DNA of 64,000 nt from Candidatus Gottesmanbacteria bacterium (GTDB taxonomy: Bacteria; Patescibacteriota; Microgenomatia; UBA10105; UBA927): NCBI GenBank assembly GCA_903821745.1, contig CAIJMI010000004.1:152404-216403 (forward strand), written 5' to 3'. Position numbers and translations under genes: made by a program. The notes below the pieces were generated by a model. It ran no database searches. It was not told the DNA's origin and saw only the letters and a program-made list of their open reading frames with translations. Shown one piece after another: positions 3,302 through 40,357 of the stretch (position 1 is the first letter of the stretch; each line of letters begins with the position of its first letter).

Positions 3302-5743
3302 ATGTTTGAAGAGGAACAAGGGCTTTCTAAAAATGAAGTAATTCAAAGGCAACAGCTTGATGGTCTCAATGTACTACCCGAAAAAACACCTCCAAGTAAG
3401 TTTTCTATCTTTATTAATCAATTAAAAAGCCCGCTAGTCTATATTCTTCTGATTGCCTCGTTTATAACAATTGCGATAGGACATATCACTGACGCGATCA
3501 TTATTTTTATTGCAGTATTTATTAATACTGTGCTTGGATACATTCAAGAACAACGTGCTTCAAACGCGCTCCTTGCGCTGAAAAAGTATGTTACCCACAC
3601 AACGACCGTTATTCGGGAAGGAAAACGGATAAAGGTTCACACAACACATATTGTTCCCGGGGACGTTGTGGTGTTAGAACAAGGTGAAAATGTCCCAGCT
3701 GATGGAATACTTCTTTTTGCGAACCGACTATATATAGATGAATCCATTTTAACCGGTGAGAGTATTCCTGTAGGAAAGAGTAAAGATCAGACGGTATCTA
3801 TGGGTACTATTATTGCTTCAGGACAAGGAAGAATTCAGGTTGAAGCAATTGGAGGAAAGACGAAGATGGGTGCAATAGCCACACAGATTCAACAGGACGA
3901 GGAACAAACGCCTCTTCAACGGCAGTTGCAGAAGTTTAGTAAACAACTTGTTGTGGTTATAACTGTTCTTACAGCATTTGTTTTTTTCCTTGGTGTTTTT
4001 TATCAATTTAGTTTAACTGAAATATTTATTACCTCTGTTGCGCTTGCCGTATCAAGTATTCCCGAAGGGTTGTTAGTATCTCTTACGGTTGTACTTGCTA
4101 TTGGTATGCAAAAAATAGTCAAACATAGAGGGTTGGTACGGAAATTATCAGCTGCAGAGACACTCGGAGGAATCACTGTTATATGTGTTGATAAAACTGG
4201 TACGTTAACACAGGGAAAAATGGAAGTAACTGATCATATTGGTGACGTCAAAGAATTGGCACAGCAGGTGCTCCTTGCCAACGATTTAGATGATCCGATG
4301 GTTATAGCTGCATTTACCTGGGGAAGAACAATTATTCAGGATTTTATATCAGAGCATGCTCGACTTGACAGCATTCCATTTTCTCCAAAAGAGCGCTTCT
4401 TTATTAGTCTTCATGTATGGAACAAAAAAACAAACATGGTGTTTGTTAATGGTGCACCAGAGCAACTTCTTTCTTGGTCAACAGTTTCAGAAGAGGAGCA
4501 AAAAGAAATCAGTGCTGCTATCGAAGCACTTACAAAACAAGGAAAAAGACTTATCGGTTTTGCACGAAAAGAAGTAGATCATACGAAAAAAACGTTAGAG
4601 CATACCGATGCAAAGGAAAAGTTAACATGGGTAGGACTACTAGCGTTTTCAGACCCCGTGCGATTAGGGGTAAAAGAGGCGTTAGATGAAGCAAAAACTG
4701 CGGGTATAAGAACAATTGTTATAACAGGAGATTATCCAAAAACATCAGAATTTGTCCTTGCTGAACTCGGGATGCCGGTTCATAGTGATGAGGTTGTCAT
4801 AGGAGAACAACTTGAAAAAATGAATTCAGAAGAGTTGATAGACGCAGTTAAGAGCGCTCGATTATTTGCCCGAACTACCCCAGGCCAAAAACTGCTGATT
4901 GTCGAAGCGTTAAAAAAGAACGGGGAAATAGTCGCAATGATGGGTGATGGCGTTAATGATGCACCCGCGCTTCACAAAGCAGACATCGGTATTGTTGTCG
5001 GGGACGCAACTGATGTGGCAAAAGAATCAGCTGACCTTGTTCTTCTTGATTCAAATTTTTCAACAATAATCAGGGCTATAGAAGAGGGGAGATCGATGTT
5101 TGAGAATATACGAAAGATAATCCTATATCTTATGAGCGACGCCTTTGCAGAGATACTTGTAGTCGTCGGGAGTATTATATTATATTTACCTCTCCCTGTT
5201 ACTGCAGTACAGATTTTGTGGATTAATCTGGTTTCTGATGGTTTTCCGGATCTTTCTTTAACAGTTGACCCTAAACGGAAGGATATTATGAGGGAACACC
5301 CGAGAAATCCTCATGAGCGGTTGGTCAACAGGTGGATGATGATACTTATCGGAACGGTAAGTGTTGTTGCGGGCGTGCTAGCGTTAGGATCATTTGTTGT
5401 TTTATACAAAACATCAGGGGATATACTGCTTGCAAGGTCATTTACATTTATTGTTCTTGGTCTAAATTCTCTAGCGTATGTATTTTCAGTCAGAACGCTC
5501 ATGACACCTTTTTGGAAGAGCCGGCTTTTTGTTAACAAGTGGTTACTTGCAGCGGTGTGTGCCGGATTTGTTTTACAATGGATTCCATTTTCCACCCCTG
5601 TTCTCCGTCAATTTTTTGGATTAACCCAGATTCCCATTTCATACTGGATCATGGCAATAGCCTTTTCTGTAATCATGTTTATGATAATAGAAATGTTCAA
5701 GTTAGTGTATCGTTTTCGGAAATCAATAAAATTCTTAAATTAA
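3302..5743 (+). CDS. P2-type cation-transporting P-type ATPase (Ca2+/Mg2+-type)
   Basis: TGES actuator loop, PEGL motif in TM4, phosphorylation site DKTGTLT, hinge GDGVNDAPAL. 813 aa with about 10 TM segments. Confidence 0.9.
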   Translation: MFEEEQGLSKNEVIQRQQLDGLNVLPEKTPPSKFSIFINQLKSPLVYILLIASFITIAIGHITDAIIIFIAVFINTVLGYIQEQRASNALLALKKYVTHTTTVIREGKRIKVHTTHIVPGDVVVLEQGENVPADGILLFANRLYIDESILTGESIPVGKSKDQTVSMGTIIASGQGRIQVEAIGGKTKMGAIATQIQQDEEQTPLQRQLQKFSKQLVVVITVLTAFVFFLGVFYQFSLTEIFITSVALAVSSIPEGLLVSLTVVLAIGMQKIVKHRGLVRKLSAAETLGGITVICVDKTGTLTQGKMEVTDHIGDVKELAQQVLLANDLDDPMVIAAFTWGRTIIQDFISEHARLDSIPFSPKERFFISLHVWNKKTNMVFVNGAPEQLLSWSTVSEEEQKEISAAIEALTKQGKRLIGFARKEVDHTKKTLEHTDAKEKLTWVGLLAFSDPVRLGVKEALDEAKTAGIRTIVITGDYPKTSEFVLAELGMPVHSDEVVIGEQLEKMNSEELIDAVKSARLFARTTPGQKLLIVEALKKNGEIVAMMGDGVNDAPALHKADIGIVVGDATDVAKESADLVLLDSNFSTIIRAIEEGRSMFENIRKIILYLMSDAFAEILVVVGSIILYLPLPVTAVQILWINLVSDGFPDLSLTVDPKRKDIMREHPRNPHERLVNRWMMILIGTVSVVAGVLALGSFVVLYKTSGDILLARSFTFIVLGLNSLAYVFSVRTLMTPFWKSRLFVNKWLLAAVCAGFVLQWIPFSTPVLRQFFGLTQIPISYWIMAIAFSVIMFMIIEMFKLVYRFRKSIKFLN

Positions 5744-29535: not shown

Positions 29536-31962
29536 ATGGAACTTACTGGTATTCGTAGCAAAGTATTTTTAGATCGCTATGCATTGAAAGACGAAACGGG
29601 AGCTCCTATTGAGAAAACACCGGAAGACATGTGGCACCGCGTTGCTCATGCTGTCGCCAAAATGGAACCAGCAGATCACCGGATGCATTGGGAAGAAAAG
29701 TTCTATGATATCATGCAAGATTTTGTGTTTGTTCCGGGGGGCCGAATTTTATCAGGCGCTGGAACCGGATATAAAGTAACCTTTTATAATTGTTTTGTCA
29801 TTCCCTCACCAAAAGATTCCCGAGGTGGCATTCTCTCAACACTCTCAAACATGGTAGAAATTATGGCCCGTGGTGGAGGCGTTGGTATTAATCTTTCAAC
29901 GCTTCGTCCACGAGGATCGAGAGTGAAGAAAGTCAATGGATTTTCTTCAGGACCGATTAATTGGGCAGAACTGTTTTCTGTTGCAACAAAAGACATTATT
30001 CAACAAGGGGGAACCCGACGAGGAGCACTTATGCTCATGCTTTGGGATTGGCATCCGGATATAGAAGAATTTATAACGGTCAAACAGGACCTTACTAAAA
30101 TTAATGGTGCAAATTTATCCGTCTGTGTGTCTGATGCATTTATGGAAGCAGTTAAAAATGATGCAGATTGGAATTTGATATTTCCGGATACCCAGGACCC
30201 TGATTATGACACAAAATGGGACGGATATATGCCCAACTGGATTGCGCTCGGTAAAACGCCAAAAATTATTAAAACCGTTAAAGCACGGGATTTGTGGGAC
30301 ATGATTGCAAAAGCTGCATGGGCAAGTGCAGAGCCGGGTGTAGTGTTCATGGAACGGTACAACAAACAATTTAATAATTATTATTATGAATTCGTAAACT
30401 GTGTTAATCCGTGCGGCGAAGAAGGATTGCCATATTGGGGAGTTTGTAATCTGTGTTCTATTAATTTGGCAGCGCTTGTCAAAGAAGACGGCACCATGAA
30501 TTATGAACGGCTGGCGGAAGTTGCAAAAATTGGCGTCCGATTTCAGGATAATGTCGTTGATGCCGATGTCTATATTTTTGATGAAATTAAAAAAGTACAG
30601 CTTGAAGGAGAACGTCGTATTGGTCTTGGGACCATGGGACTGGGTGATGCCCTCATTAAGATGAAAATTCGATACGGGTCGAAAGAAAGTTTGGAAGTGA
30701 TCGATAAAATATATAAAACGATTCGCGACGCTGCATATGAATCATCCATTTTGCTCGCAAAAGAAAAAGGGGCATTTCCAAAAATTGATAAAGCAAAGCA
30801 TGTTGTAGGGTATTTCTGTAACCAACTTCCCGAAAACTTAAAAAAGAAAATGAAGAAATATGGGGTAAGAAATTCACTACTGTTGCAGCAAGCTCCAACA
30901 GGTTCAACATCCATGTTATCCGGTGTTTCAAGTGGTATTGAGCCGGTCTATGAGTTTGAATATATGCGGCACGATAGACTTGGTGATCATATTATTCGAC
31001 ATGAACTCTATGATGCATGGTTTGAACAATTTAAAGCAGAAAATGGCAGAGAGCCAACGCGGGAAGATCGACCAGATTATTTTGCATCAGCAAATGATTT
31101 AACGCCGGAAAATCATGTGGAAGTGCAAGCAGCAATTCAAAAATATGTTGACGCGTCCATTAGTAAAACAGTAAATGCGCCAAATGTGCATACGGTTGAA
31201 GATGTAAAACGTATTTATACACTTGCGTATGATCTTGGATGTAAAGGAATTGCCTACATGCGCGAAGGAAGCAGACAAGGAGTGTTAATGCGAAAAGAAG
31301 AGTCAAAAAAGGAAGAGATAAAACAAGAAATAATGAATGCACCAGAGGTCAAACCGCGTCCAGATATCGTGCATGGGTCAACGTACAGAGCGGAGACACC
31401 CGTTGGACAAGCCTATGTGACCGTGAATACCAACGGAGGAAATCAGCCAATAGAAGTCTTTATAAACGTTGGAAAAGCAGGAAGTGATGTGACTGCCATG
31501 GCTGAGGCAATGGGACGGCTTATTTCGTTGACGCTTCGCATGGCCTCACCAATTCCGCCAATTGAACGTGCGCGGAAAGTTGCAGCAGAGCTTATTGGTA
31601 TCGGAGGCGCACGGTCCTTGGGATTTGGTGAAAATCGTGTTCGAAGTCTTCCTGATGCAGTGGCAAAGGTGATCGATCGTCATTTTGGATTTTTTGCAAA
31701 ACACCGACTTGATGCTGCGGCAACAGAACCAGACCGGGTAACGGTGGAAAAAGGAAATGAAACAGATGAAAAGAAAAATGGGGAAGACATTAAGGCACTG
31801 CTTGCAAAAATGGGTGCAACACCAACATCAGCAGTTGCAGTTGCTGAGGAAAAAGAGCATCGGATGGTGACGGTAGATCTGTGTCCAAAATGCGGAGAGG
31901 GAACGCTCGTTTTTGAGGAATCATGTAAAAAATGTTACAACTGCGGATATAGCGAATGTTAA
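29536..31962 (+). CDS. nrdJ: Class II adenosylcobalamin-dependent ribonucleotide reductase
   Basis: Monomeric NrdJ-like active-site and allosteric regions; C-terminal zinc ribbon CPKCGEG...CKKCYNCGYSEC. AGGAGG 8 nt upstream. Confidence 0.9.
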   Translation: MELTGIRSKVFLDRYALKDETGAPIEKTPEDMWHRVAHAVAKMEPADHRMHWEEKFYDIMQDFVFVPGGRILSGAGTGYKVTFYNCFVIPSPKDSRGGILSTLSNMVEIMARGGGVGINLSTLRPRGSRVKKVNGFSSGPINWAELFSVATKDIIQQGGTRRGALMLMLWDWHPDIEEFITVKQDLTKINGANLSVCVSDAFMEAVKNDADWNLIFPDTQDPDYDTKWDGYMPNWIALGKTPKIIKTVKARDLWDMIAKAAWASAEPGVVFMERYNKQFNNYYYEFVNCVNPCGEEGLPYWGVCNLCSINLAALVKEDGTMNYERLAEVAKIGVRFQDNVVDADVYIFDEIKKVQLEGERRIGLGTMGLGDALIKMKIRYGSKESLEVIDKIYKTIRDAAYESSILLAKEKGAFPKIDKAKHVVGYFCNQLPENLKKKMKKYGVRNSLLLQQAPTGSTSMLSGVSSGIEPVYEFEYMRHDRLGDHIIRHELYDAWFEQFKAENGREPTREDRPDYFASANDLTPENHVEVQAAIQKYVDASISKTVNAPNVHTVEDVKRIYTLAYDLGCKGIAYMREGSRQGVLMRKEESKKEEIKQEIMNAPEVKPRPDIVHGSTYRAETPVGQAYVTVNTNGGNQPIEVFINVGKAGSDVTAMAEAMGRLISLTLRMASPIPPIERARKVAAELIGIGGARSLGFGENRVRSLPDAVAKVIDRHFGFFAKHRLDAAATEPDRVTVEKGNETDEKKNGEDIKALLAKMGATPTSAVAVAEEKEHRMVTVDLCPKCGEGTLVFEESCKKCYNCGYSEC

Positions 31963-31965
31963 TCT

Positions 31966-32538
31966 ATGCCAGTGTATACACGAACGGGTGATGATGGAAC
32001 AACTGCACTGTTTGGAGGAAAACGCATCTTAAAATGTGAAGAACTCGTTGATGTGTATGGTTCCATTGATGAACTCAATAGCTGGATCGGCGTTCTTCTT
32101 GCAACAGACAAGAATCAAAGGGACAAGCAATTGTTTCTTGCAATACAACAAGATTTGTTTTTGATCGGCAGTGTACTTGCAGGATGGAAGGGTGATATTT
32201 CTCCACTTGGTAAGCGAATTTTAGAAATGGAACAGCATATCGATGCAATTGAAACAAAAGTGCCGAAAATCACAAATTTTATTCTTCCCGGTGGATCAAA
32301 GAGTGCATCGTATGTTCATGTAGTAAGAAGTATTACTCGACGTGTTGAACGGCAAATGGTTGCATTATTTGCAAAGGAAAAGAGTAGTACAGTACCTGAT
32401 AAAAATAATCAACGAAAAATGATTACGTATATCAATCGTTTGTCTGACTTGTTATTTATGATGGCAAGAGGTATAAATAAGACAGTTGGTATCAAAGAAG
32501 TTGTATGGAAAGGGATATCAACAAAGAGTAAAGAGTAG
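31966..32538 (+). CDS. PduO-type ATP:cob(I)alamin adenosyltransferase
   Basis: MPVYTRTGDDGTT signature N-terminus; 4 nt after the nrdJ stop. Confidence 0.85.
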   Translation: MPVYTRTGDDGTTALFGGKRILKCEELVDVYGSIDELNSWIGVLLATDKNQRDKQLFLAIQQDLFLIGSVLAGWKGDISPLGKRILEMEQHIDAIETKVPKITNFILPGGSKSASYVHVVRSITRRVERQMVALFAKEKSSTVPDKNNQRKMITYINRLSDLLFMMARGINKTVGIKEVVWKGISTKSKE

Positions 32539-32614
32539 AGGAAGGTTGTGTAACTCAATCACTGTGCCGCAACGGTAAAGTCCGGAACTCTTCTTTACCT
32601 ATCCCGAGCAGGAG
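32537..32614 (+). promoter_or_regulatory. Conserved riboswitch-like 5' leader, copy 1 (candidate cobalamin-responsive element)
   Basis: Duplicated about 1 kb downstream. Contains CACUG, a UGCCG-CAA-CGGUA hairpin, AAGUCCGGAA, and an ACUC tract complementary to the GGAG Shine-Dalgarno. Confidence 0.35.
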
Positions 32615-32623
32615 TATTTTTTT

Positions 32624-33061
32624 GTGGAAAGAAACAATATGAAAACAAAAATGAATGCACGAACCATTATTCTTATTATCATGTGTGTCGTGTTGGGTGT
32701 GTTGTTTGTCCGAAATGGACTCGAAGTAAAACGAATACAACAACATCCAATAGAACGGACAACAAACAAACCAGAAGTTGTAGTGACCATCAATAATGGA
32801 GCTTCGCTTATCACGGAAACCATCTCAGCAGGAACACCGTTTGAAGCATTATCCGTTCTCGCAGAAAAAAAACAACTACCATTAACAACAAAACAATATG
32901 ATTTTGGTGTATTTGTCAGTGGTATTGGAGATGTTCTGACTACAAAGGAATTTGGATGGATTTATTATGTGAATAATAAATCAGGTGACGTCGCCGCTGA
33001 TAAATACGAGTTACATAATGGAGATCAAGTTGAATGGAAGTTTGAAAAATCAATTTTTTGA
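32624..33061 (+). CDS. DUF4430 (transcobalamin-like C-terminal domain) membrane-anchored protein
   Basis: N-terminal TM; C-terminal GWIYYVNNKSGDVAADKYELHNGDQVEWKFEK resembles the transcobalamin-like beta-domain. GTG start 12 nt after GGAG. Confidence 0.55.
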   Translation: MERNNMKTKMNARTIILIIMCVVLGVLFVRNGLEVKRIQQHPIERTTNKPEVVVTINNGASLITETISAGTPFEALSVLAEKKQLPLTTKQYDFGVFVSGIGDVLTTKEFGWIYYVNNKSGDVAADKYELHNGDQVEWKFEKSIF

Positions 33062-33582
33062 TACTTATGGAGATGATTACATTTACACTGATTGGTATTC
33101 TTTCAAGACTTGTGCCGCATATTCCAAACATGACTGCAGTGGGAGGTGCATCACTGTTTATGGGTGCAAAATTTGGTGTAAAGAAAAGCATGATCGTACT
33201 TTTTTTAACTATGCTGGCGACTGATAGTGTGAAAGGACTGCATTCTGTGATGTGGGCAACGTACGGATCATTGGTTCTTGCTATTTTGATCGGTAAATAT
33301 ATGGCATCAAAAAAAAATGCAGGGTGGATTATCGGAGGAACGCTGTTGTCTTCTATTTTGTTTTTTATCATTACAAATTTTGCTGTATGGCTTGCCCCGA
33401 ATTTTATGTACGCAAAAACCCTTTCAGGACTTGTGGACTGCTACATGATGGCAGTTCCATTTTTCAAAAATTCTCTCGCTGGCGATTTGATGTATTCAAG
33501 TATTTTTTTTGGTGGATACGCATTCGTTGCATCCATTAAACAAAAGATGATGATGTGTCAGGTCGGCCATAAAAACATATAA
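33058..33582 (+). CDS. Small polytopic membrane protein, ECF S-component/BtuM-like candidate vitamin transporter
   Basis: 174 aa with about six TM helices; 4-nt overlap with the DUF4430 gene. Confidence 0.4.
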   Translation: MILMEMITFTLIGILSRLVPHIPNMTAVGGASLFMGAKFGVKKSMIVLFLTMLATDSVKGLHSVMWATYGSLVLAILIGKYMASKKNAGWIIGGTLLSSILFFIITNFAVWLAPNFMYAKTLSGLVDCYMMAVPFFKNSLAGDLMYSSIFFGGYAFVASIKQKMMMCQVGHKNI

Positions 33583-33586
33583 AGGA

Positions 33587-33666
33587 AGAGGAAGGTTGTG
33601 TAACTCAACCACTGTGCCGCAACGGTAAAGTCCGATACTCCCCTTTATATTTTCCCGAGCAGGAGG
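33587..33666 (+). promoter_or_regulatory. Conserved riboswitch-like 5' leader, copy 2
   Basis: Shares a 22-nt block (1 mismatch), an identical 25-nt block and an identical CCCGAGCAGGAG block with copy 1. GGAGG lies 7 nt before ATG 33673. Confidence 0.35.
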
Positions 33667-33672
33667 TCCATC

Positions 33673-35301
33673 ATGTATTGCGTACCAGAAAAAGAAATTT
33701 CTCTTCTTACCTATAAAGATAAATATTCCACACTTCAAGAGATACATCCTGAATGGACGTCGCATGAACTTCGTTTAACAAGCGCCAGTGAACTCCGCTC
33801 CCAATTTCAGGCTGATCGTGAAACGGCTGCAAGAGAAAATTTAGGGTTGCCGATGATTGAAGTTCCAGAGGCAACATTTACTCTTACTGATGAAGGAACA
33901 GTCTGGTACCCAAACTATGGGAGTGGTGTTGGACTTGTTGAGTTGAGTGAACGACAAAAAAGGTTGCGGCCTGAGCATTATTCACCGGAAGAACACACCA
34001 TTTCATTATTAATAGAAGAACAATTTAAGCATGGAGCAACAGAAGTAGTAACAAGTTATGGAGATAGGGATGTGGTGATTATGAAGTATGATCCAAAAAC
34101 AAAAAAGGGGAAAACGGAGGTTATCAATACCGCGGTTGTAATGGAAAATGAATATAAACCCATGCAAGAATTTATCTCTGAACATTTTCCAAAATTAGAA
34201 TCAGTGCCCGTAACAAAAAGCATTTTTTTGTTTGCCGATAAAAAACTAATTGTTGAACATGCAACGGAAATAGTTCAACAAATGGTAAGAAAATCTGCTC
34301 GTATACATCAACTGCCATATGCTGAAAAAAGACAGAGAATAGCTATCACAGACCAGAAACAGGAATACCCCTATCTTCCGCCATTTATGAGCCATGATAT
34401 TTCTAAGACACATCATGAGGATATGATGCCTGTTGTAGAAACACAGCACTATCAGAGGTTGGATAGCAAACATGTGCAACAGAAAGAACAAACCATAGAA
34501 CGAGTTAAAGACCTCGTTCACAAGGACCAACAGAAGCAACGTATCATATCGTCCATTGAAGTGTCTCAAAAACCGGTGTTGGTGTTTCAATTTTCAAAAA
34601 AAACGGACGAGTATACAAAACAAATAAAACCATCCGTGACGGTCTATATGAGCGACCCAATCGTGGAAAATCAAATCGCGCGCCATATTTTGAAGAATGA
34701 CAAAATTGTTCCGTCGATGCAGCTAAAAGAGAATGATCCGCTGCCTGTGTTTTTGGAGAAGCCAAAACAAAAAGATGAACAAGCAATCACATGGGACAAT
34801 AGAGACCTAAAAGAAACGAAAGAAGAACCACATATAATGGTTGATGCACGTATAAAACAGAATGTTGTCATTGAACAAACGATCGAAGAATATTTTGAAA
34901 CTGGAGATACAAAAGAATCTATCGTGAAAATAGAACCAGCTGTTATTCGTTCTCTGTACGCGCCGTATATGTCTGAAATACCGTTTTTCGTTGATAAAAG
35001 ATCGGGTGTCATATCGGAAATTCAGAAGTTGTGTTGGATTTGTCCGTTAGTAGAGACAATGGATCAGCCTGAAATGTTGGAAGTGGAGATACCGAAAGAT
35101 CAAAATCAACGGTTATATAATTTATTACATTTCCTACAAAAGATTGTAAAAAAACAATTTGGTGAAGATCATATTAGACAGAGAACAATACAGGTCGTGA
35201 ACGCAGATGAATCAGATCGAGTGCGTGATGAAATTACATATTATCTAACACTCTTGGAAGAAAAGAATATGCGAATGCATATGTATGCGTTCGTGAACTG
35301 A
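33673..35301 (+). CDS. Large soluble hypothetical protein (542 aa)
   Basis: No TM and no recognisable motif; charged Lys/Glu/Gln-rich composition. Confidence 0.5.
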   Translation: MYCVPEKEISLLTYKDKYSTLQEIHPEWTSHELRLTSASELRSQFQADRETAARENLGLPMIEVPEATFTLTDEGTVWYPNYGSGVGLVELSERQKRLRPEHYSPEEHTISLLIEEQFKHGATEVVTSYGDRDVVIMKYDPKTKKGKTEVINTAVVMENEYKPMQEFISEHFPKLESVPVTKSIFLFADKKLIVEHATEIVQQMVRKSARIHQLPYAEKRQRIAITDQKQEYPYLPPFMSHDISKTHHEDMMPVVETQHYQRLDSKHVQQKEQTIERVKDLVHKDQQKQRIISSIEVSQKPVLVFQFSKKTDEYTKQIKPSVTVYMSDPIVENQIARHILKNDKIVPSMQLKENDPLPVFLEKPKQKDEQAITWDNRDLKETKEEPHIMVDARIKQNVVIEQTIEEYFETGDTKESIVKIEPAVIRSLYAPYMSEIPFFVDKRSGVISEIQKLCWICPLVETMDQPEMLEVEIPKDQNQRLYNLLHFLQKIVKKQFGEDHIRQRTIQVVNADESDRVRDEITYYLTLLEEKNMRMHMYAFVN

Positions 35302-35313
35302 ACCAGGTGTGAT

Positions 35314-35718
35314 ATGATAAAGCATATGAATACCCTGCCTACTATGGGCACTACTCCCAGTTCTATTTCAACACCTCCGCAGGCAGTTGGAAATATAGGA
35401 AAAGAAACAGAAATACCATCGTCCTCAAGTCAAGAAACGCCGATTCAAGACCTTGGAAAAGAAATGGAATTACCGAAAGAAGTGATGTCCGCAGGAGTAT
35501 CCATGCAGCCAACAATTATTTCTATTCCTCCACCAGTTGTGCAGCTTGGAGTTAAACCAGCTGGACAAAATGCTCCCACTATTTCGACAGGAGCAATTTC
35601 AATGATTCTGACGGATGAACAAATCGCACAAGGACTCCATTCGAGTATCTCAAATTCGATAAGGTGGCTCGCCGAATGGTGTCGCCATAAACTAAAAGTG
35701 CTGCACATTGTACAATAA
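35314..35718 (+). CDS. Pro/Ser/Thr-rich hypothetical protein
   Basis: 134 aa, low complexity. Confidence 0.35.
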   Translation: MIKHMNTLPTMGTTPSSISTPPQAVGNIGKETEIPSSSSQETPIQDLGKEMELPKEVMSAGVSMQPTIISIPPPVVQLGVKPAGQNAPTISTGAISMILTDEQIAQGLHSSISNSIRWLAEWCRHKLKVLHIVQ

Positions 35719-38071
35719 GCATATGTCGACGGAATTGACTGATATTATCGGAAAAGCAGAAGTATTCGGAATGAATGTGCTTCTTCTTGTTTTATTTCTT
35801 GGTGCCTTTTTTGGGCTATGTTACGTTGCATTTCTTTTATGGAAATACCGAAATCGGGAAGCACGGTCGTTGTCATATGTACTGCTGCAAATAGCAGTGC
35901 CACGAGAAAATGAAATTAAAATCGATGCGGCAGAACAAATGTTTTCCAGTTTGTATGGCATATTTAATAATAAATGGTGGGCATTTGTAAAACCGCAGGA
36001 TCATATTTCATTTGAAATTGTGGCAAAACGGGAAGATATCCGTTTTTATGTGTCTGTCCCAAAAAACATAAAAGACCTCGTTGAAAAACAAATCAACGGT
36101 GCATATCCCGGAGCTGATATTAAAGAAGTAGAGGAATACTCTATTTTTTCTGAAAAAGGGAAAGTGTCATTTGCGGCGCTACGGCTTCGTTATGCTAGTC
36201 ATTATCCAATTAGAAACTATCGTGATTTACCAACAGATGCACTTTCGCTTGTGACGTCAGTGCTTGCTAAGATGAGCGAAGGGGAAGGAGCGGTTATCCA
36301 GCTTTTGATTCAGCCGACAGGTGACAAATGGAAACGAGTGGGACGGTCATACATTTCCAAAATAAAGAAAGATGAAGCAAATCCAGAAAAAGCAAATTTT
36401 AAAATTAATCAAAAATCTTTGGAAGCAATTGAAACAAAAATTCAAAAACCTGGATTTAACAGCGTCATCCGTATTGTTGTTTCATCGACAACCAAGGATC
36501 AGGCTGATCAGCATCTAAAAAATATTCTTGCAGCATTCGAACAATTTTCATCAGACAATAATTCATTCTGGGAGATAAAATTTCCAATTAAACATCTATT
36601 TCTTACTGATTTTATATACCGCTATTTTCCAGTTGTGAATTTACCACTTCTCCGACAATTTAGTGTACTAAACAGTGATGAACTGGCAAGTATTTTCCAT
36701 TTACCGAATAAAACAATAGAAACGCCGCACATCTTTTGGTTGAACGCAAAGCGCGCGCCTGCTCCAATGCTCATTCCTGAATCAGGATTATTTTTAGGCA
36801 TGTCAAAATACCGTGGTGTGGAGCGTCCGATTTTTATCGGAGATGATGACAGACGGCGTCACATGTATGTCATTGGAAAAACCGGTACAGGAAAGTCGCA
36901 ACTTCTGGAAGAAATGGTCATGCAGGATATTAATGCAGGAAAGGGGGTTGCTGTTATTGATCCCCACGGAGATTTGATTTCAGGAATTTTGAATCGTATG
37001 CCAGTTTCGAGAGCTGAAGATGTAATTGTGTTTGATCCTTCTGATACTGAGAGACCGATGGGACTGAATATGCTTGAGGCAAAAACAGAGGAACAAAAAC
37101 ATTTTGTTGTCACATCAATCGTCGGCCTTATGTATAAATTGTACGACCCAATGAAAACAGGAATTATCGGTCCTCGGTTTGAACATGCAATTAGAAATGC
37201 CATGCTTACTGTCATGGCAGAGCCTGGAAATACGTTTGTTGAAGTGGTTCGTGTATTAACAGATCCTGCATTTGTGCAAGAGTTATTGCCGAAAGTTAAT
37301 GACCCAATGATTAGACGGTATTGGACAGATCAAATTGCTCAAACTGCCGACTTTCATAAGTCAGAAGTTTTGGATTATATCGTTTCAAAATTCGGTCGGT
37401 TTGTTACAAATAAATTAATGCGGAATATCATTGGGCAATCCGTGTCTTCATTTGATTTTAGAAAAGTGATGGATGAAGGAAAAATTCTTCTGGTGAATTT
37501 GGCAAAAGGAAAACTTGGAGAAGAAAACAGTAACTTTTTGGGATTGATTCTCGTTCCCCGTATTCTTGTTGCCGCAATGAGCAGACAGGAAATGCCAGAA
37601 GAAGACCGGCGGGATTTTTATCTTTATGTCGACGAGTTTCAAAACTTTGCAACTCCAGACTTTGCGCAGATTCTTTCCGAGGCTCGGAAGTACAGACTCA
37701 ATTTAACCGTTGCCAACCAATTTATTGGTCAAATGGAAGAGGAAGTGAAGAATGCAGTATTCGGGAACGTCGGTACGCTAATTTCATTCCGTGTTGGTGT
37801 GACGGATGCAAACTATTTGCAGCATGAATATCAACCGACGTTTAACGAATCAGATCTTATCAATATTGATAAATACAATTCGTATGTAAAAACAATTGTG
37901 AAGAATGAACCAATGAAACCATTTTCCATTGATTTAACGAAAGATATGAATCAAATTGTTCAAGCAAGAAATCCTCAAATTGCAAAAGCAATCATTCAAC
38001 TGTCACGGTTAAAATATGGAAGAAGCAAAGAGTTGGTAGAGGCGGAAATTTCACAGCGCGCGAGATTGTAA
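35708..38071 (+). CDS. Membrane-anchored P-loop ATPase of the VirB4/VirD4/TraG/HerA (FtsK-HerA) superfamily
   Basis: N-terminal TM helix. Walker A IGKTGTGKSQ about 380 aa in, Walker B LYVDEFQNF, and an ARKYRLNLTVANQ arginine-finger region as in VirB4/TraC-type ATPases. Confidence 0.7.
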   Translation: MYNKHMSTELTDIIGKAEVFGMNVLLLVLFLGAFFGLCYVAFLLWKYRNREARSLSYVLLQIAVPRENEIKIDAAEQMFSSLYGIFNNKWWAFVKPQDHISFEIVAKREDIRFYVSVPKNIKDLVEKQINGAYPGADIKEVEEYSIFSEKGKVSFAALRLRYASHYPIRNYRDLPTDALSLVTSVLAKMSEGEGAVIQLLIQPTGDKWKRVGRSYISKIKKDEANPEKANFKINQKSLEAIETKIQKPGFNSVIRIVVSSTTKDQADQHLKNILAAFEQFSSDNNSFWEIKFPIKHLFLTDFIYRYFPVVNLPLLRQFSVLNSDELASIFHLPNKTIETPHIFWLNAKRAPAPMLIPESGLFLGMSKYRGVERPIFIGDDDRRRHMYVIGKTGTGKSQLLEEMVMQDINAGKGVAVIDPHGDLISGILNRMPVSRAEDVIVFDPSDTERPMGLNMLEAKTEEQKHFVVTSIVGLMYKLYDPMKTGIIGPRFEHAIRNAMLTVMAEPGNTFVEVVRVLTDPAFVQELLPKVNDPMIRRYWTDQIAQTADFHKSEVLDYIVSKFGRFVTNKLMRNIIGQSVSSFDFRKVMDEGKILLVNLAKGKLGEENSNFLGLILVPRILVAAMSRQEMPEEDRRDFYLYVDEFQNFATPDFAQILSEARKYRLNLTVANQFIGQMEEEVKNAVFGNVGTLISFRVGVTDANYLQHEYQPTFNESDLINIDKYNSYVKTIVKNEPMKPFSIDLTKDMNQIVQARNPQIAKAIIQLSRLKYGRSKELVEAEISQRARL

Positions 38072-38132
38072 AAAATACCCTCTTTACATTCTTTATAATT
38101 GCTATACACTCTTGAAGTATTGACAAAAAAGT

Positions 38133-39539
38133 ATGGACCAACAAGAAGAACCTTCCTGCACTACCGCGATTGTTAAACGTCACGAAAAAGTCGTCTACAT
38201 TTTTAATCTTTCAGAAGATGTTTGGCCTTTTATTAAGGCAATGTCTGATCCGCATGAGCGGCAATTTGAAATTGATTGGAATGCAAATCTTGCTGAACGT
38301 GATCTTCTTTCAATTGCTGAAGAAAATGAAGCAATATTTATCAGTCCTCATCCAATCAAAGATTCTTTTCTTTCATATTACCAACAGGTATTTGGTACAA
38401 AACATATTCAAATTTTGGTTCCAAAAACACACACCGGTGAAATTTGTGAAGACATTATCAATGATAATGATCTCGTTGAGGAACTAATTAAAGCAGCAAA
38501 TTCAGTTAAAAAATTAACACTCATCAGCTATTCAACGAGTCCGCAATTTCTACATCTTGTTTCAAAACTTCAAAAAAAAGGAATTACTGTGTATACCCCA
38601 GAATCTCCTGAAGTTCCAAGTGCATGGACCGTTAATTTCTATGGGAGCAAATCTGGTATCAGGCAGCTTGCACAAAAAAGCGGTGCCATAGAGCCGGATT
38701 TTAAAATAGCGGATGGTCTTATTTGTTCTTCTATCTATGATGCGGCAATGATTGCTGCACATAAGTATATAAAAGAAGGCGGTGTCGTTATTAAAACGAA
38801 TAAAGGACATTCCGGTGCAGGAGTACTTTTGTTACGTCCAGGAGATCTTCCGAATGAATATGATGCATGTGAAAAAGCAATTCATACAATGTTGAAAAAA
38901 GATAAATATTGGGAAGAATTTCCTATCGTTATCGAAGATCTGTTAAATGTAAATCCTGCAGTTGGTGGAGGATTTCCGGATGTTGAATTTAAAATTCAAA
39001 AATCAGGAAAAATTGAACTCTTATACTACTGCGCAATGCGGGTGGACAGAAGCGGGATCTATAAAGGACAGGAAATGCATGAATCAGTTCTTCCAGAACG
39101 GTTAGCCGCACGAATTGTTGATACAGGATTTTTTATTGGTGAGCAATATGCTGCTGCAGGATATCGGGGATATTTTGACGTTGATTTTGTTGCAGCAAAA
39201 AATGGAGAAATTTATGTAACAGAATCCAATGCTCGTCGAACAGGAGGAACCCACGTCTATAAAACTGCGATGAATCTTATTGGCAAAGAGTTTATGACTG
39301 ATTCCTATACACTTTCCAATAACGATTATTCCTTACCGAAAGGAAAAAAACCTTCTCTTGAGGAAGTGATACAGGTATTAACGCCAGTTCTGTTTGATAA
39401 AAAAACAAAAGAGGGTGTTGTCCTTGCGTCATCCAATTTACTTGAACAAGGGAAATTTGCATATATCATTTTTGGTAAAAATGAAAAACGCTCGCTCGAA
39501 ATAGAAGCAGAAATGGAAAAACTTCTTTTGAAGCTTTAG
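38133..39539 (+). CDS. ATP-grasp fold enzyme, unknown substrate
   Basis: KTNKGHSGAGV and ESNARRTGGTH ATP-grasp motifs. Confidence 0.55.
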   Translation: MDQQEEPSCTTAIVKRHEKVVYIFNLSEDVWPFIKAMSDPHERQFEIDWNANLAERDLLSIAEENEAIFISPHPIKDSFLSYYQQVFGTKHIQILVPKTHTGEICEDIINDNDLVEELIKAANSVKKLTLISYSTSPQFLHLVSKLQKKGITVYTPESPEVPSAWTVNFYGSKSGIRQLAQKSGAIEPDFKIADGLICSSIYDAAMIAAHKYIKEGGVVIKTNKGHSGAGVLLLRPGDLPNEYDACEKAIHTMLKKDKYWEEFPIVIEDLLNVNPAVGGGFPDVEFKIQKSGKIELLYYCAMRVDRSGIYKGQEMHESVLPERLAARIVDTGFFIGEQYAAAGYRGYFDVDFVAAKNGEIYVTESNARRTGGTHVYKTAMNLIGKEFMTDSYTLSNNDYSLPKGKKPSLEEVIQVLTPVLFDKKTKEGVVLASSNLLEQGKFAYIIFGKNEKRSLEIEAEMEKLLLKL

Positions 39540-39553
39540 TAATTTCCGTACTA

Positions 39554-40276
39554 TTGACTACCATTTGTGAAGATTGTTATCATGTAAGCATGTCTAGGCT
39601 ATCTGATCATGAAAAAGCGTTAGACTTACGTCGTAAAGGAAAAAGTTATTCGCAAATAAAGGAAACCTTGGGAATAAGTAAAAGCACTCTAAGTGATTGG
39701 TTACGTAATTATCCTCTGTCTAAAGAGCAAATGTATCTCCTTACAGGGAAAAGTGAGCAAAAAATTGAGCGATATAGGGAAACTCGATTACGAATAAAAA
39801 ATGAAAAATTTTCTATTGTGGTTGAGAATGAAAAGCATAAAATATTGCCAATTTCATTAAAAGAAATATTTATGGCTGGATTATTTCTTTATTGGGGGGA
39901 GGGCACGAAAGGGTCAAATTGCACTGTTAGTGTAAGCAATACAGATTATAGAGTAATAGATTATTTTGTTCATTGGCTAGAGGTTTGTTTTTTAGTGCCA
40001 AGAAAAAAAATAAAAATTAGTTTGCAACTATATAGCGATATGAATATAAATAGTGCAATAAATTTTTGGAAAAAGACATTACATATGTCATCGAAACAAT
40101 TTATAAAACCATATATTAAAAAGAGTATACAAAAGACAATAAATCAAAAAAATGGATATGGTCACGGAACATGTCAGGCATACATATATGACGTGAAGAT
40201 AAAAACACGGATAATGGCAGGATTTGAGGTCATATATAAAGAACTAGAAGAATATAAGAAGAAAACATATAATTAG
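39554..40276 (+). CDS. HTH domain protein with a single LAGLIDADG-like motif (candidate homing-endonuclease-like protein)
   Basis: N-terminal resolvase-like HTH (KSYSQIKETLGISKSTLSDWL); central MAGLFLYWGEGTKGS matches the LAGLIDADG motif. Confidence 0.45.
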   Translation: MTTICEDCYHVSMSRLSDHEKALDLRRKGKSYSQIKETLGISKSTLSDWLRNYPLSKEQMYLLTGKSEQKIERYRETRLRIKNEKFSIVVENEKHKILPISLKEIFMAGLFLYWGEGTKGSNCTVSVSNTDYRVIDYFVHWLEVCFLVPRKKIKISLQLYSDMNINSAINFWKKTLHMSSKQFIKPYIKKSIQKTINQKNGYGHGTCQAYIYDVKIKTRIMAGFEVIYKELEEYKKKTYN

Positions 40277-40284
40277 CAAGTAGA

Positions 40285-40356
40285 GCGCCCGTAGCTCAGC
40301 GGTAGAGCGCATGTCTTATAAACATGAGGTACTTGGATCGTCACCAAGCGGGCGCA
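40285..40356 (+). tRNA. tRNA-Ile (anticodon UAU), 72 nt, no encoded CCA
   Basis: Manual cloverleaf: acceptor GCGCCCG/CGGGCGC, D-arm GCTC-AGCGGTA-GAGC, anticodon stem CATGT/ACATG, loop CTTATAA, T-arm CTTGG-ATCGTCA-CCAAG, discriminator A. Confidence 0.8.
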
Positions 40357-40357
40357 C

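Follow-up and report, generated by a model that had tools for sequence, protein, structure and literature searches.

Type IV coupling proteins (T4CPs), among them TrwB of R388, VirD4, TraD and DotL/IcmO, consist of an N-terminus with two transmembrane (TM) helices followed by a P-loop nucleotide-binding domain with Walker A and B motifs. In Patescibacteria, a group with tiny genomes that makes up much of bacterial diversity, 5,713 VirD4-like genes were found in 2,918 genomes, only 148 of them near virB4, and the orphan T4CP genes were suggested to have perhaps been exapted to other functions (Quinonero-Coronel et al. 2025, Microb Genom, PMC12102498). The same study, which gives no architecture, partner or context for these orphans, reports that in S. 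epibionticum the VirD4-like t4cp gene is non-essential, whereas that organism's type IV secretion system (T4SS) is essential. We analyzed a 64-kb stretch of chromosome (hereafter the window) from a Gottesmanbacteria-like organism (Microgenomates, Patescibacteria) with a tiny genome, in which four open reading frames (ORFs) follow each other on the + strand: p542 (33673-35301, 542 aa), p134 (35314-35718, 134 aa), a VirD4/VirB4-clade P-loop ATPase gene (35708-38071, 787 aa from a TTG start) and an ATP-grasp ligase gene (38133-39539, 468 aa). Like the orphan T4CPs, the ATPase fits VirD4/TraD/TrwB profiles and its gene is chromosomal, far from virB4 and widespread; it almost certainly belongs to the 5,713 T4CP hits of PMC12102498. 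Altogether, the locus holds a VirD4/VirB4-type motor that has been domesticated and whose partner and N-terminal domain are both new, beside a new protein family predicted to be under the control of a vitamin B12 riboswitch.

We read the block as three adjoining units that differ in their evolutionary age, set within a vertically inherited housekeeping stretch, and give this reading a probability of roughly 0.6. In this arrangement Unit 1 would comprise an adenosylcobalamin (AdoCbl)-II riboswitch and p542, Unit 2 p134 and the ATPase, and Unit 3 the ATP-grasp ligase. Compared with PMC12102498, the new elements are the DUF8128 N-terminal domain and the fold neighbours of the ATPase, its obligatory small partner with the fusions between the two, the extreme conservation of the ATPase, its Xer/DivIC and NrdJ/PduO neighbourhoods and the tandem paralogues in some lineages.

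The first-pass annotation, made from the letters of this DNA, had located the four ORFs correctly and had treated them as one system. This grouping was not supported by comparison with other lineages, in which the ATP-grasp gene and the riboswitch with p542 occur without the ATPase and the p134-ATPase pair occurs without p542. Linkage was followed by tblastn of the window's proteins against 84 ATPase loci; comparison loci in other genomes carry L-numbers, and L001-L003 come from three related metagenome-assembled genomes (Gottesmanbacteria / Microgenomates). In most lineages p134 and the ATPase occur without p542, and likewise without any riboswitch. Conversely, L087 has a riboswitch and p542 between RecA/RecX/RNase Y/HU and unrelated genes, with neither p134 nor the ATPase. 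The N-domain of p542 was seen only where the linked ATPase is at least 77% identical to that of the window. Linkage of the ATP-grasp gene with the ATPase was confined to Gottesmanbacteria loci, and homologues of this gene at L090 (832-3129) and L091 (6100-8455), 59-60% identical, adjoin an arginase/agmatinase-family gene and no ATPase; the contigs concerned are one from Wirthbacteria and one of 751 kb. No paralogues of the block genes were found within the window. The pairing of riboswitch and p542 is thus the invariant, since the aptamer directly precedes genes of the family, in L087 even where the ATPase is missing, and p542 stands next to the ATPase because both adjoin NrdJ/PduO in this lineage.

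The spacing of the genes can also be taken to mean that all four form one B12-regulated operon encoding a new translocation or secretion module, in which the ATPase would have p542, and perhaps also p134, as a substrate, adaptor or regulator made under B12 limitation only and the ATP-grasp enzyme would modify a component. The genes are co-directional; p542 and p134 are 12 nt apart, and the p134 stop lies 4 nt before an ATG at 35723, which is the probable true start of the ATPase (782 aa), as gene calls in relatives begin at the equivalent ATG. The overlap of 10-11 nt between p134 and the ATPase, one of the signs of an operon in the first-pass annotation, arises only with the TTG start. The operon-like spacing did not hold for the ATP-grasp gene, which is separated from the ATPase by 61 nt holding a promoter-like site (38083-38110) and is probably transcribed separately. 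The order riboswitch, p542-family gene, small protein and ATPase recurs in L001-L006, L008, L086, L088 and L089, a terminator-type riboswitch directly precedes the corresponding gene string in L007, and in L012 the riboswitch, DUF4430, DUF6580, PduO, the small gene and the ATPase overlap gene by gene, so that a riboswitch-headed, operon-like B12 cluster runs into the pair. Furthermore, most p542-family proteins end in a Trp-rich hydrophobic helix reminiscent of the helix of p134. On the other side stand the free occurrence of the three units described above, the riboswitch of the window, which is of the Shine-Dalgarno (SD) type and would affect p542 directly and nothing else, and a toxin cassette inserted between p542 and p134 in L085. 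We therefore regard a single module as improbable; of the module that had been proposed at first, regulated by B12 or another ligand, the B12 riboswitch ahead of p542 was upheld.

Several observations nevertheless weigh against the composite reading. A riboswitch, a large variable protein, a small protein and the ATPase follow each other in this order in more than 12 loci, the 12-nt and 4-nt spacings in the window are compatible with co-transcription, and the terminator in L007 would govern everything downstream of it. Given these three points, p542 and the ATPase may be functionally tied. In addition, the AlphaFold2 (AF2) models are only partly confident, with a mean predicted local distance difference test (pLDDT) score of 53 for p542 and values of 50-77 for the motor of the ATPase, the latter probably because the input alignment was restricted to at least 62% identity.

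The block lies in ordinary chromosomal surroundings. In L001-L003 the gene order is the same as in the window, running from PGK, GAPDH and further genes through NrdR, NrdJ, PduO, DUF4430 and DUF6580 to p542, p130, the ATPase, the ATP-grasp gene, NUDIX and TsaD. As this order is shared by three related genomes, the locus is not an island. The block is followed in the window by a helix-turn-helix (HTH) gene, tRNA-Ile(UAU), the NUDIX gene and TsaD, and the HTH gene is the sole variable element of the locus across L001-L003. GC content (0.382 in the block, 0.385 in the window) and tetranucleotide usage (rank 31 of 59 sliding windows) were ordinary. Elsewhere the window encodes penicillin-binding proteins, P-type ATPases, GroEL, methionyl-tRNA synthetase and similar proteins. 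It had been considered that the block is the remnant of an integrative element, that is, a decayed integrative or conjugative element next to tRNA-Ile. Such an origin would fit a VirD4-like ATPase that lacks its apparatus, the tRNA and the variable HTH gene on the 3' side, and the tyrosine recombinases near the ATPase in other lineages. However, gene order and flanks are identical in the related genomes, composition does not deviate, the ATPase is 42-93% identical across all Patescibacteria classes, and the recombinases, which are orthologous and XerC/D/A-like, diverge in step with the ATPase. Pfam and NCBIfam revealed neither an integrase nor a relaxase in the block. On the grounds of synteny, composition and phylum-wide vertical conservation, the island or remnant was rejected, and we consider it extremely improbable.

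A similar fate met the suggestion of a defence-like system, in which a HerA/FtsK-type NTPase with accessory proteins would act against phages or in other conflicts. PADLOC matched the ATPase domain to mad8 (1.3e-16) and generically to HerA, covering only the motor domain, and gave no match for four other proteins of the locus. A nuclease, SIR2 or methylase partner is not present. Moreover, the ATPase is nearly universal and extremely conserved in the phylum and sits in fixed housekeeping synteny, whereas defence islands are patchy and turn over fast. The defence system was rejected as well and in our view has hardly any probability. For annotation, this means that the labels mobile element, secretion island and defence system do not apply to the locus.

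The ATPase of Unit 2 carries the motifs that had been noticed in it, IGKTGTGKSQ at aa 389-398, LYVDEFQNF at aa 639-647 and ARKYRLNLTVANQ at aa 659-671. The Walker A sequence GKTGTGKS (nt 36875-36898) and the Walker B sequence LYVDEFQNF (nt 37622-37648) have residues that are invariant in 28 diverse homologues. The prediction of one N-terminal TM helix in front of a motor of the VirB4/VirD4 branch of the FtsK-HerA superfamily was borne out by a single hydrophobic segment at aa ~20-46 and by T4CP-type Pfam matches. Behind this segment the protein divides into a DUF8128 domain (aa ~57-330), for which orthologues bear the precomputed match PF26449 at their N-terminus, and a motor domain (aa ~360-700) interrupted by an all-alpha insertion (aa 461-589). 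Scores exceeded the Pfam gathering thresholds of TrwB_AAD_bind (31.2 vs 20.5), T4SS-DNA_transf (30.7 vs 20.1), TraG-D_C (24.9 vs 22) and also DUF87. All NCBIfam T4CP equivalog cut-offs were missed, the best being TIGR03743 with 56.8 vs 366 bits. Among sequences in the PDB, the ATPase matched TrwB (5.6e-07) and, with a 28-sequence profile, DotL (2.7e-07).

The AF2 model of the ATPase shows a long N-terminal helix and a confident DUF8128 domain (pLDDT 80-93). In Foldseek comparisons of this model, full-length TrwK/VirB4 was the best match (E 2e-12 over ~750 columns, with a TM-score of only 0.26), followed by TrwB (E ~1e-08, ~330 columns), HerA, DotL and Cag-beta. FtsK chains in the PDB appeared neither at E<=1 in the sequence search nor among the fold hits; Pfam FtsK_SpoIIIE did not match and a gamma domain was undetected. 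By sequence and by model, the ATPase therefore belongs to the VirD4/VirB4 clade, though its N-terminal half is unusual, and is not an FtsK orthologue. The first-pass annotation had set against its own proposal the case of a simple FtsK/SpoIIIE orthologue in a conserved housekeeping context: the housekeeping context was indeed found, but FtsK orthology was supported neither by sequence nor by fold. The protein resembles T4CPs in its P-loop domain, Walker motifs and profile matches. Unlike the T4CP N-terminus with two TM helices, however, it has one hydrophobic segment and a ~270-aa DUF8128 domain, the anchor is absent in L063 and L064, no relaxase or T4SS gene neighbours it in the window or in the 84 loci, and it is conserved at housekeeping level. 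With FtsK/SpoIIIE it shares the superfamily, the membrane-anchored motor and the housekeeping context, but it has one anchor segment where FtsK has four TM helices. Similarity to EccE, a membrane component of type VII/ESX systems, amounted to only 10-13% identity, and further ESX components are missing.

More than 7,900 homologues of the ATPase were recovered, the best 120 of them 76-93% identical, and among species representatives at least 597 loci were found at 42-78% identity. They come from Gottesman-, Levy-, Roizman-, Curtiss-, Woese-, Davies-, Shapiro-, Collier-, Dojka-, Sacchari-, Doudna- and Berkelbacteria and from WWE3. Between the window and L005-L008 the ATPase is 77-78% identical and NrdJ 69-77%, and for L012 and L017 the values are 66-67% and 56-57%, so that at the sequence level the ATPase is as conserved as NrdJ, a ribonucleotide reductase, or more so. 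Because 42-93% identity is kept group-wide despite the tiny genomes, the ATPase is likely central to the biology of Patescibacteria. Two tandem T4CP-like paralogues (~850 and ~1000 aa) were observed in L083 (6956-14293) and L084 (6917-15545), with a small ORF and the gene for a Sigma70_r4 + HARE-HTH protein between them; these tandems agree with the roughly two T4CP homologues per Patescibacteria genome given in the literature.

The small partner p134 showed no match in Pfam, NCBIfam or PADLOC. Its N-terminal part is Pro/Ser/Thr-rich and disordered, and near its end lies a conserved amphipathic helix, SIRWLAEWCRHKLKVL, at aa ~108-131 (nt 35635-35706), with the family signature "...LPLTDDQIAQGLH.SI..S.RWLAEWC.R.LK". 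An iterative profile seeded with the last 65 residues of p134 recovered the family in 38 of the 84 loci, across classes: 35 of these have it immediately upstream of the ATPase gene, L040 has it ~0.8 kb upstream, and L063 and L064 carry fusions with the ATPase. Weaker signatures are visible by eye in Dojka- and Saccharibacteria-labelled loci. In the two fusions a Pro-rich region and a Trp-rich helix stand in-frame with DUF8128 and take the place of the hydrophobic anchor, from which we argue that p134 and the ATPase act together on the cytoplasmic face of the membrane. The helix has a hydrophobic moment of 0.57, which we take to be equal to that of the membrane-targeting helix of FtsA. These properties suggest that the p134 helix serves at the membrane or as a surrogate of the anchor. 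As far as sequence comparison tells, p134 and the ATPase form an ancient pair of genes that recurs throughout Patescibacteria.

To characterize the neighbourhood of the pair, all ORFs around the ATPase in the 84 loci were clustered and the cluster representatives annotated. The commonest neighbour was a XerC/D/A-like tyrosine recombinase, found in 36 loci in convergent orientation 0.1-3.8 kb downstream. DivIC, transcribed divergently from Xer, was present near the ATPase in 29 loci, and SpoIID, SmpB and bPH-domain genes were rarer neighbours. The divergent Xer-DivIC pair lies just downstream of the ATPase from Gottesmanbacteria to Dojkabacteria, in L008, L012 (10139-11389), L019, L037, L045, L066 and L072. 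Xer identity between lineages (37-56%) tracks ATPase identity (45-66%), which is why we regard these neighbours as orthologous housekeeping recombinases rather than phage integrases. NrdJ is encoded upstream of the ATPase in 18 and PduO in 20 of the 84 loci; this recurrence comprises ~20 Microgenomates loci. The absence of T4SS apparatus and relaxase genes from the window, as reported before, was confirmed: the scan, which covered the larger ORFs, found neither VirB4 nor other T4SS genes there, T4SS components did not adjoin the ATPase in any of the 84 loci, and no virB3/virB6/virB8-type genes occurred among its neighbours.

By homology, the ATPase would form a membrane-bound hexameric translocase with p134 as its partner on the cytoplasmic face, and where the genes are fused, the amphipathic Trp-rich helix of p134 could stand in for the anchor. 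The Xer/DivIC/NrdJ neighbourhood points to a role in DNA handling or the cell cycle rather than in conjugation. Based on this neighbourhood, the housekeeping-level conservation and the non-essential T4CP of S. epibionticum, we tentatively propose, at somewhat less than even odds, that the ATPase translocates DNA or nucleoprotein at the membrane and so serves a core function of the cell cycle, connected with dNTP supply, Xer recombination and division. The Pro-rich disordered part of p134 recalls the FtsK linker, and the Xer and DivIC neighbours in 36 and 29 loci would be in line with an FtsK-like association with Xer recombination and the divisome. A tblastn search with an approximate E. coli FtsK motor query gave nothing in the 1.23 Mb of window and comparison loci, the ATPase gene included; as a sample of ~1% of each genome, this negative is uninformative about a canonical FtsK. 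On FtsK in Patescibacteria the literature searches turned up only an annotated ftsK in TM7x, and the main text of the Cell 2023 transposon sequencing paper mentions neither FtsK nor VirD4. Against the cell-cycle role it has to be held that gene neighbourhood is its only basis and that neither Xer nor DivIC was found in the window, that the motor is T4CP/VirB4-like and not FtsK-like by both sequence and fold, that a canonical FtsK may coexist with the ATPase, as TM7x with its annotated ftsK indicates, and that the non-essential t4cp of S. epibionticum is only a candidate orthologue of the ATPase family.

The same observations bear on the question whether the ATPase instead serves the essential Patescibacterial T4SS as its substrate receptor, or coupling protein, with a gene at a distance from virB4, as is frequent for T4CPs, and with p134 as an adaptor or membrane tether. 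Such a role would bear only on how Unit 2 works and would agree with the composite layout of the block. The best sequence families (TraD/VirD4/TrwB/DotL) and the structural neighbours (TrwK/VirB4, TrwB, DotL, Cag-beta) agree with such a receptor, and the T4SS of Patescibacteria is conserved while most T4CP genes lie away from virB4 (PMC12102498). However, no T4SS gene adjoins the ATPase, Xer and DivIC are what recurs beside it, substrate receptors are not usually conserved as strongly as NrdJ or more so, and one hydrophobic segment with ~270 aa of DUF8128 differs from the VirD4/TrwB N-terminus; in S. epibionticum, furthermore, the t4cp homologue is dispensable although the T4SS is not (PMC12102498). 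We thus consider a coupling protein rather unlikely. In either case the orphan T4CPs, so far unexplained hits in the literature, now have a domain architecture consisting of an anchor, DUF8128 and a VirD4/VirB4-type motor.

Unit 1 begins with a cobalamin riboswitch. The suggestion of a riboswitch-like leader, perhaps for B12, in front of p542 proved right: AdoCbl-II (RF01689) was detected at 33569-33648 (copy 2, + strand) with 42.6 bits, against a gathering score of 36.5 bits for this Rfam covariance model, and an E value of 7.6e-07 over the whole window. Another copy (copy 1, 32528-32598, + strand, 39.0 bits) forms the leader of the DUF4430/DUF6580 genes. The copies are identical in 79 of 108 aligned columns and both terminate in the conserved tail CCCGAGCAGGAG. 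Within the 3' tail of copy 2, CCCGAGCAGGAGG, the Shine-Dalgarno sequence AGGAGG (33661-33666, + strand) lies 6 nt 5' of the p542 ATG, and the SD-bearing tail is kept in both window copies and in L001, L002, L003 and L008. From these sequence features, copy 2 is classified as a translational, SD-type expression platform that acts directly on p542 only. A minimum free energy fold of copy 2 gave P1 and internal hairpins; as folding of the leader was not significant (z-score -0.35), the riboswitch call is founded on covariance-model score and conservation, not on thermodynamics.

Rfam aptamers were located directly upstream of p542-family genes in L001, L003, L008, L085, L086 and L087, and aptamers were recognized by core motif or alignment upstream of homologues in L002, L004 and L088, in the last case at a contig edge. 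In L005 the aptamer core lies just 5' of the family member and in L006 farther upstream, before DUF4430. In nearly all cases the family follows a cobalamin riboswitch in the vicinity of NrdJ, PduO and B12 uptake genes. Orthologous cobalamin riboswitches differ in their platforms: the window has the SD type (33569-33672), and in the riboswitch of L007 (4401-4536) the ATG comes directly after an intrinsic terminator (CTTCTCG-ATT-CGAGAAG and then T7). The arrangement in the window corresponds to known AdoCbl-II riboswitches and B12 regulons in that the aptamer scores above the gathering threshold, lies in a 5' leader and has an SD sequence in its 3' tail, and in that the controlled genes adjoin candidate genes of B12 uptake (DUF4430, DUF6580) and genes of B12 use (NrdJ, PduO). 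In contrast to known B12 regulons, p542 belongs to none of the known classes of controlled genes, i.e. transport, biosynthesis or B12-independent isozymes. As the riboswitch class suggests, binding of AdoCbl to the aptamer would occlude the SD sequence and leave p542 untranslated. The protein would then be made when B12 is scarce, alongside the products of the neighbouring riboswitch-controlled DUF4430/DUF6580 candidate uptake genes, serving NrdJ. Independently of the p542 family, a second cobalamin aptamer core was seen in a Levybacteria locus (L031, 4633-6207) ahead of a 482-aa protein with a C-terminal zinc ribbon, which holds the place of p542 before a small gene and the ATPase and is not detectably related to it.

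The statement that the 542-aa and 134-aa proteins have no recognisable domain stood up to Pfam, NCBIfam and PADLOC, none of which matched p542. The protein is composed of an N-domain (aa 1-205, nt 33673-34287), a hypervariable middle part predicted to be disordered (aa 207-399) and a C-domain (aa 410-542), and no hydrophobic segment was found in it. A relaxed Pfam scan of 34 family members and a comparison of the family profile with PDB sequences gave nothing significant, and neither did Foldseek of the p542 AF2 model against the PDB; PAS, roadblock and longin-like folds came out best at E 0.2-1, too weak a match for any of these folds to be claimed. Eight homologues were obtained in a first search. 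A profile search against 1.84 billion cluster representatives yielded 127 representatives (50% identity clusters), 102 of them at E<=1e-10. The members are mostly 500-830 aa long and share a core of the N-terminal ~200 residues; the C-domain of the window type occurs in only ~30 of them, and most of the remaining C-termini follow the pattern "W.LL.IIWYLA.IREQG...IFA". With 34-46% identity in tblastn comparisons with the loci, p542 is the least conserved gene of the region. By sequence it represents a lineage-restricted, fast-evolving, soluble and half-disordered family with no known fold relative.

An improved hidden Markov model of the N-domain missed the riboswitch-associated proteins of L007 (662 aa) and L031 (482 aa), which were therefore not assigned to the family; the L007 protein has only a C-terminal motif in common with L005, L006 and L008. 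The N-terminal residues MYC(V/I)PEKE (aa 1-8, nt 33673-33696) are invariant in all eight close homologues, which are 40-56% identical over the whole protein, and the first codons may be under constraint as RNA, belonging to the expression platform of the riboswitch. In L085 the family member is preceded by a GNAT gene and followed by a CDI-toxin-like cassette (3925-5597), located between the p542-family and p134-like genes and encoding a 269-aa protein without assignment, a 194-aa CDI_toxin_EC869-like protein and a 94-aa ORF that is possibly an immunity gene. This insertion suggests that the junction between p542 and p134 tolerates accessory cassettes.

Given its leader, p542 may act in the acquisition or handling of B12 or in the response to B12 starvation, although we would not put this quite at an even chance. 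The family adds an undescribed, fast-evolving member to the B12 regulon of host-dependent organisms that are unable to make B12, and its role could show how epibionts cope with vitamin limitation. A farther-reaching and distinctly improbable version joins Units 1 and 2 in a vitamin-sensing cell-cycle checkpoint, with p542 as a B12-starvation factor acting on the p134-ATPase pair. In that case the ATPase would be a translocase, derived from a T4CP/VirB4 ancestor, that works in chromosome segregation or cell division. Once AdoCbl, and hence NrdJ-dependent dNTP synthesis, is exhausted, the riboswitch would free the translation of p542, the C-terminal helix of which would dock on the membrane-bound ATPase complex, so that DNA translocation or division would be held back or redirected. 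If true, ultra-small epibiotic bacteria would possess a checkpoint built from a domesticated conjugation motor.

The genes upstream of the composite block account for its B12 context. NrdJ, a class II (AdoCbl-dependent) ribonucleotide reductase (29536-31962, + strand), is the only visible B12 consumer in the locus and heads the local B12 neighbourhood; its orthologues in L001-L003 bear Ribonuc_red_lgN/lgC and TSCPD domains. It is followed by a PduO-type ATP:cob(I)alamin adenosyltransferase (31966-32538, + strand; Pfam Cob_adeno_trans, E 8.8e-50). Behind riboswitch copy 1 come the DUF4430 gene (32624-33061, + strand; Pfam 1.1e-13) and the DUF6580 gene (33058-33582, + strand; Pfam 2.7e-40), both candidates for B12 uptake. 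In L008 (79-3651) the NrdJ orthologue has 1190 aa compared with the usual ~808 aa, as an insertion of ~380 aa that looks like an intein follows the conserved 'VNCVNPC' motif.

The presence of an ATP-grasp ligase behind the ATPase, also named by the first-pass annotation, was corroborated by a Pre-ATP-grasp domain, with a marginal Pfam score (PreAtp-grasp, 27.7 vs 27.5 gathering), and by similarity to PGM1 and BesA. PDB matches were PGM1 (3wvq, 8.9e-08), an ATP-grasp peptide ligase (8ynd, 3.1e-07) and BesA (8yi6, 1.6e-06); NCBIfam gave weak matches to BesA and LdmS, with all equivalog cut-offs missed. Of 847 homologues, practically all belong to Patescibacteria, and one is a Wirthbacteria protein. 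In domain order and sequence similarity the protein resembles PGM1/BesA/LdmS amide ligases, but the NCBIfam cut-offs set it apart, as does its partner elsewhere, the arginase-family gene of L090 and L091, for which no counterpart was found in the window. This neighbour hints at a guanidino compound or an arginine-related substrate. We regard the ATP-grasp gene as an independent metabolic gene that merely neighbours the p134-ATPase pair in this lineage.

Outside the block, an HTH-LAGLIDADG-like gene and a tRNA had been described at its end. The tRNA and the HTH part were found, but Pfam shows only HTH_23 and HTH_3 in the 240-aa protein (39554-40276, + strand) and no LAGLIDADG domain. L001 and L003 lack the gene, L002 has a 78-aa GIY-YIG gene in its place, and homologues (42-47%) occupy this site in L007, L020 and L089. 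Next to the tRNA, it has the look of a mobile gene of a homing-endonuclease-like kind. The latter, tRNA-Ile(UAU) (40285-40357), was identified by ARAGORN and Rfam, and its UAU anticodon is an unusual bacterial way of reading AUA. A tRNA lies at the equivalent site 3' of the ATPase/ATP-grasp genes in many related loci, among them L001-L003, L005-L008, L012, L031 and L089.

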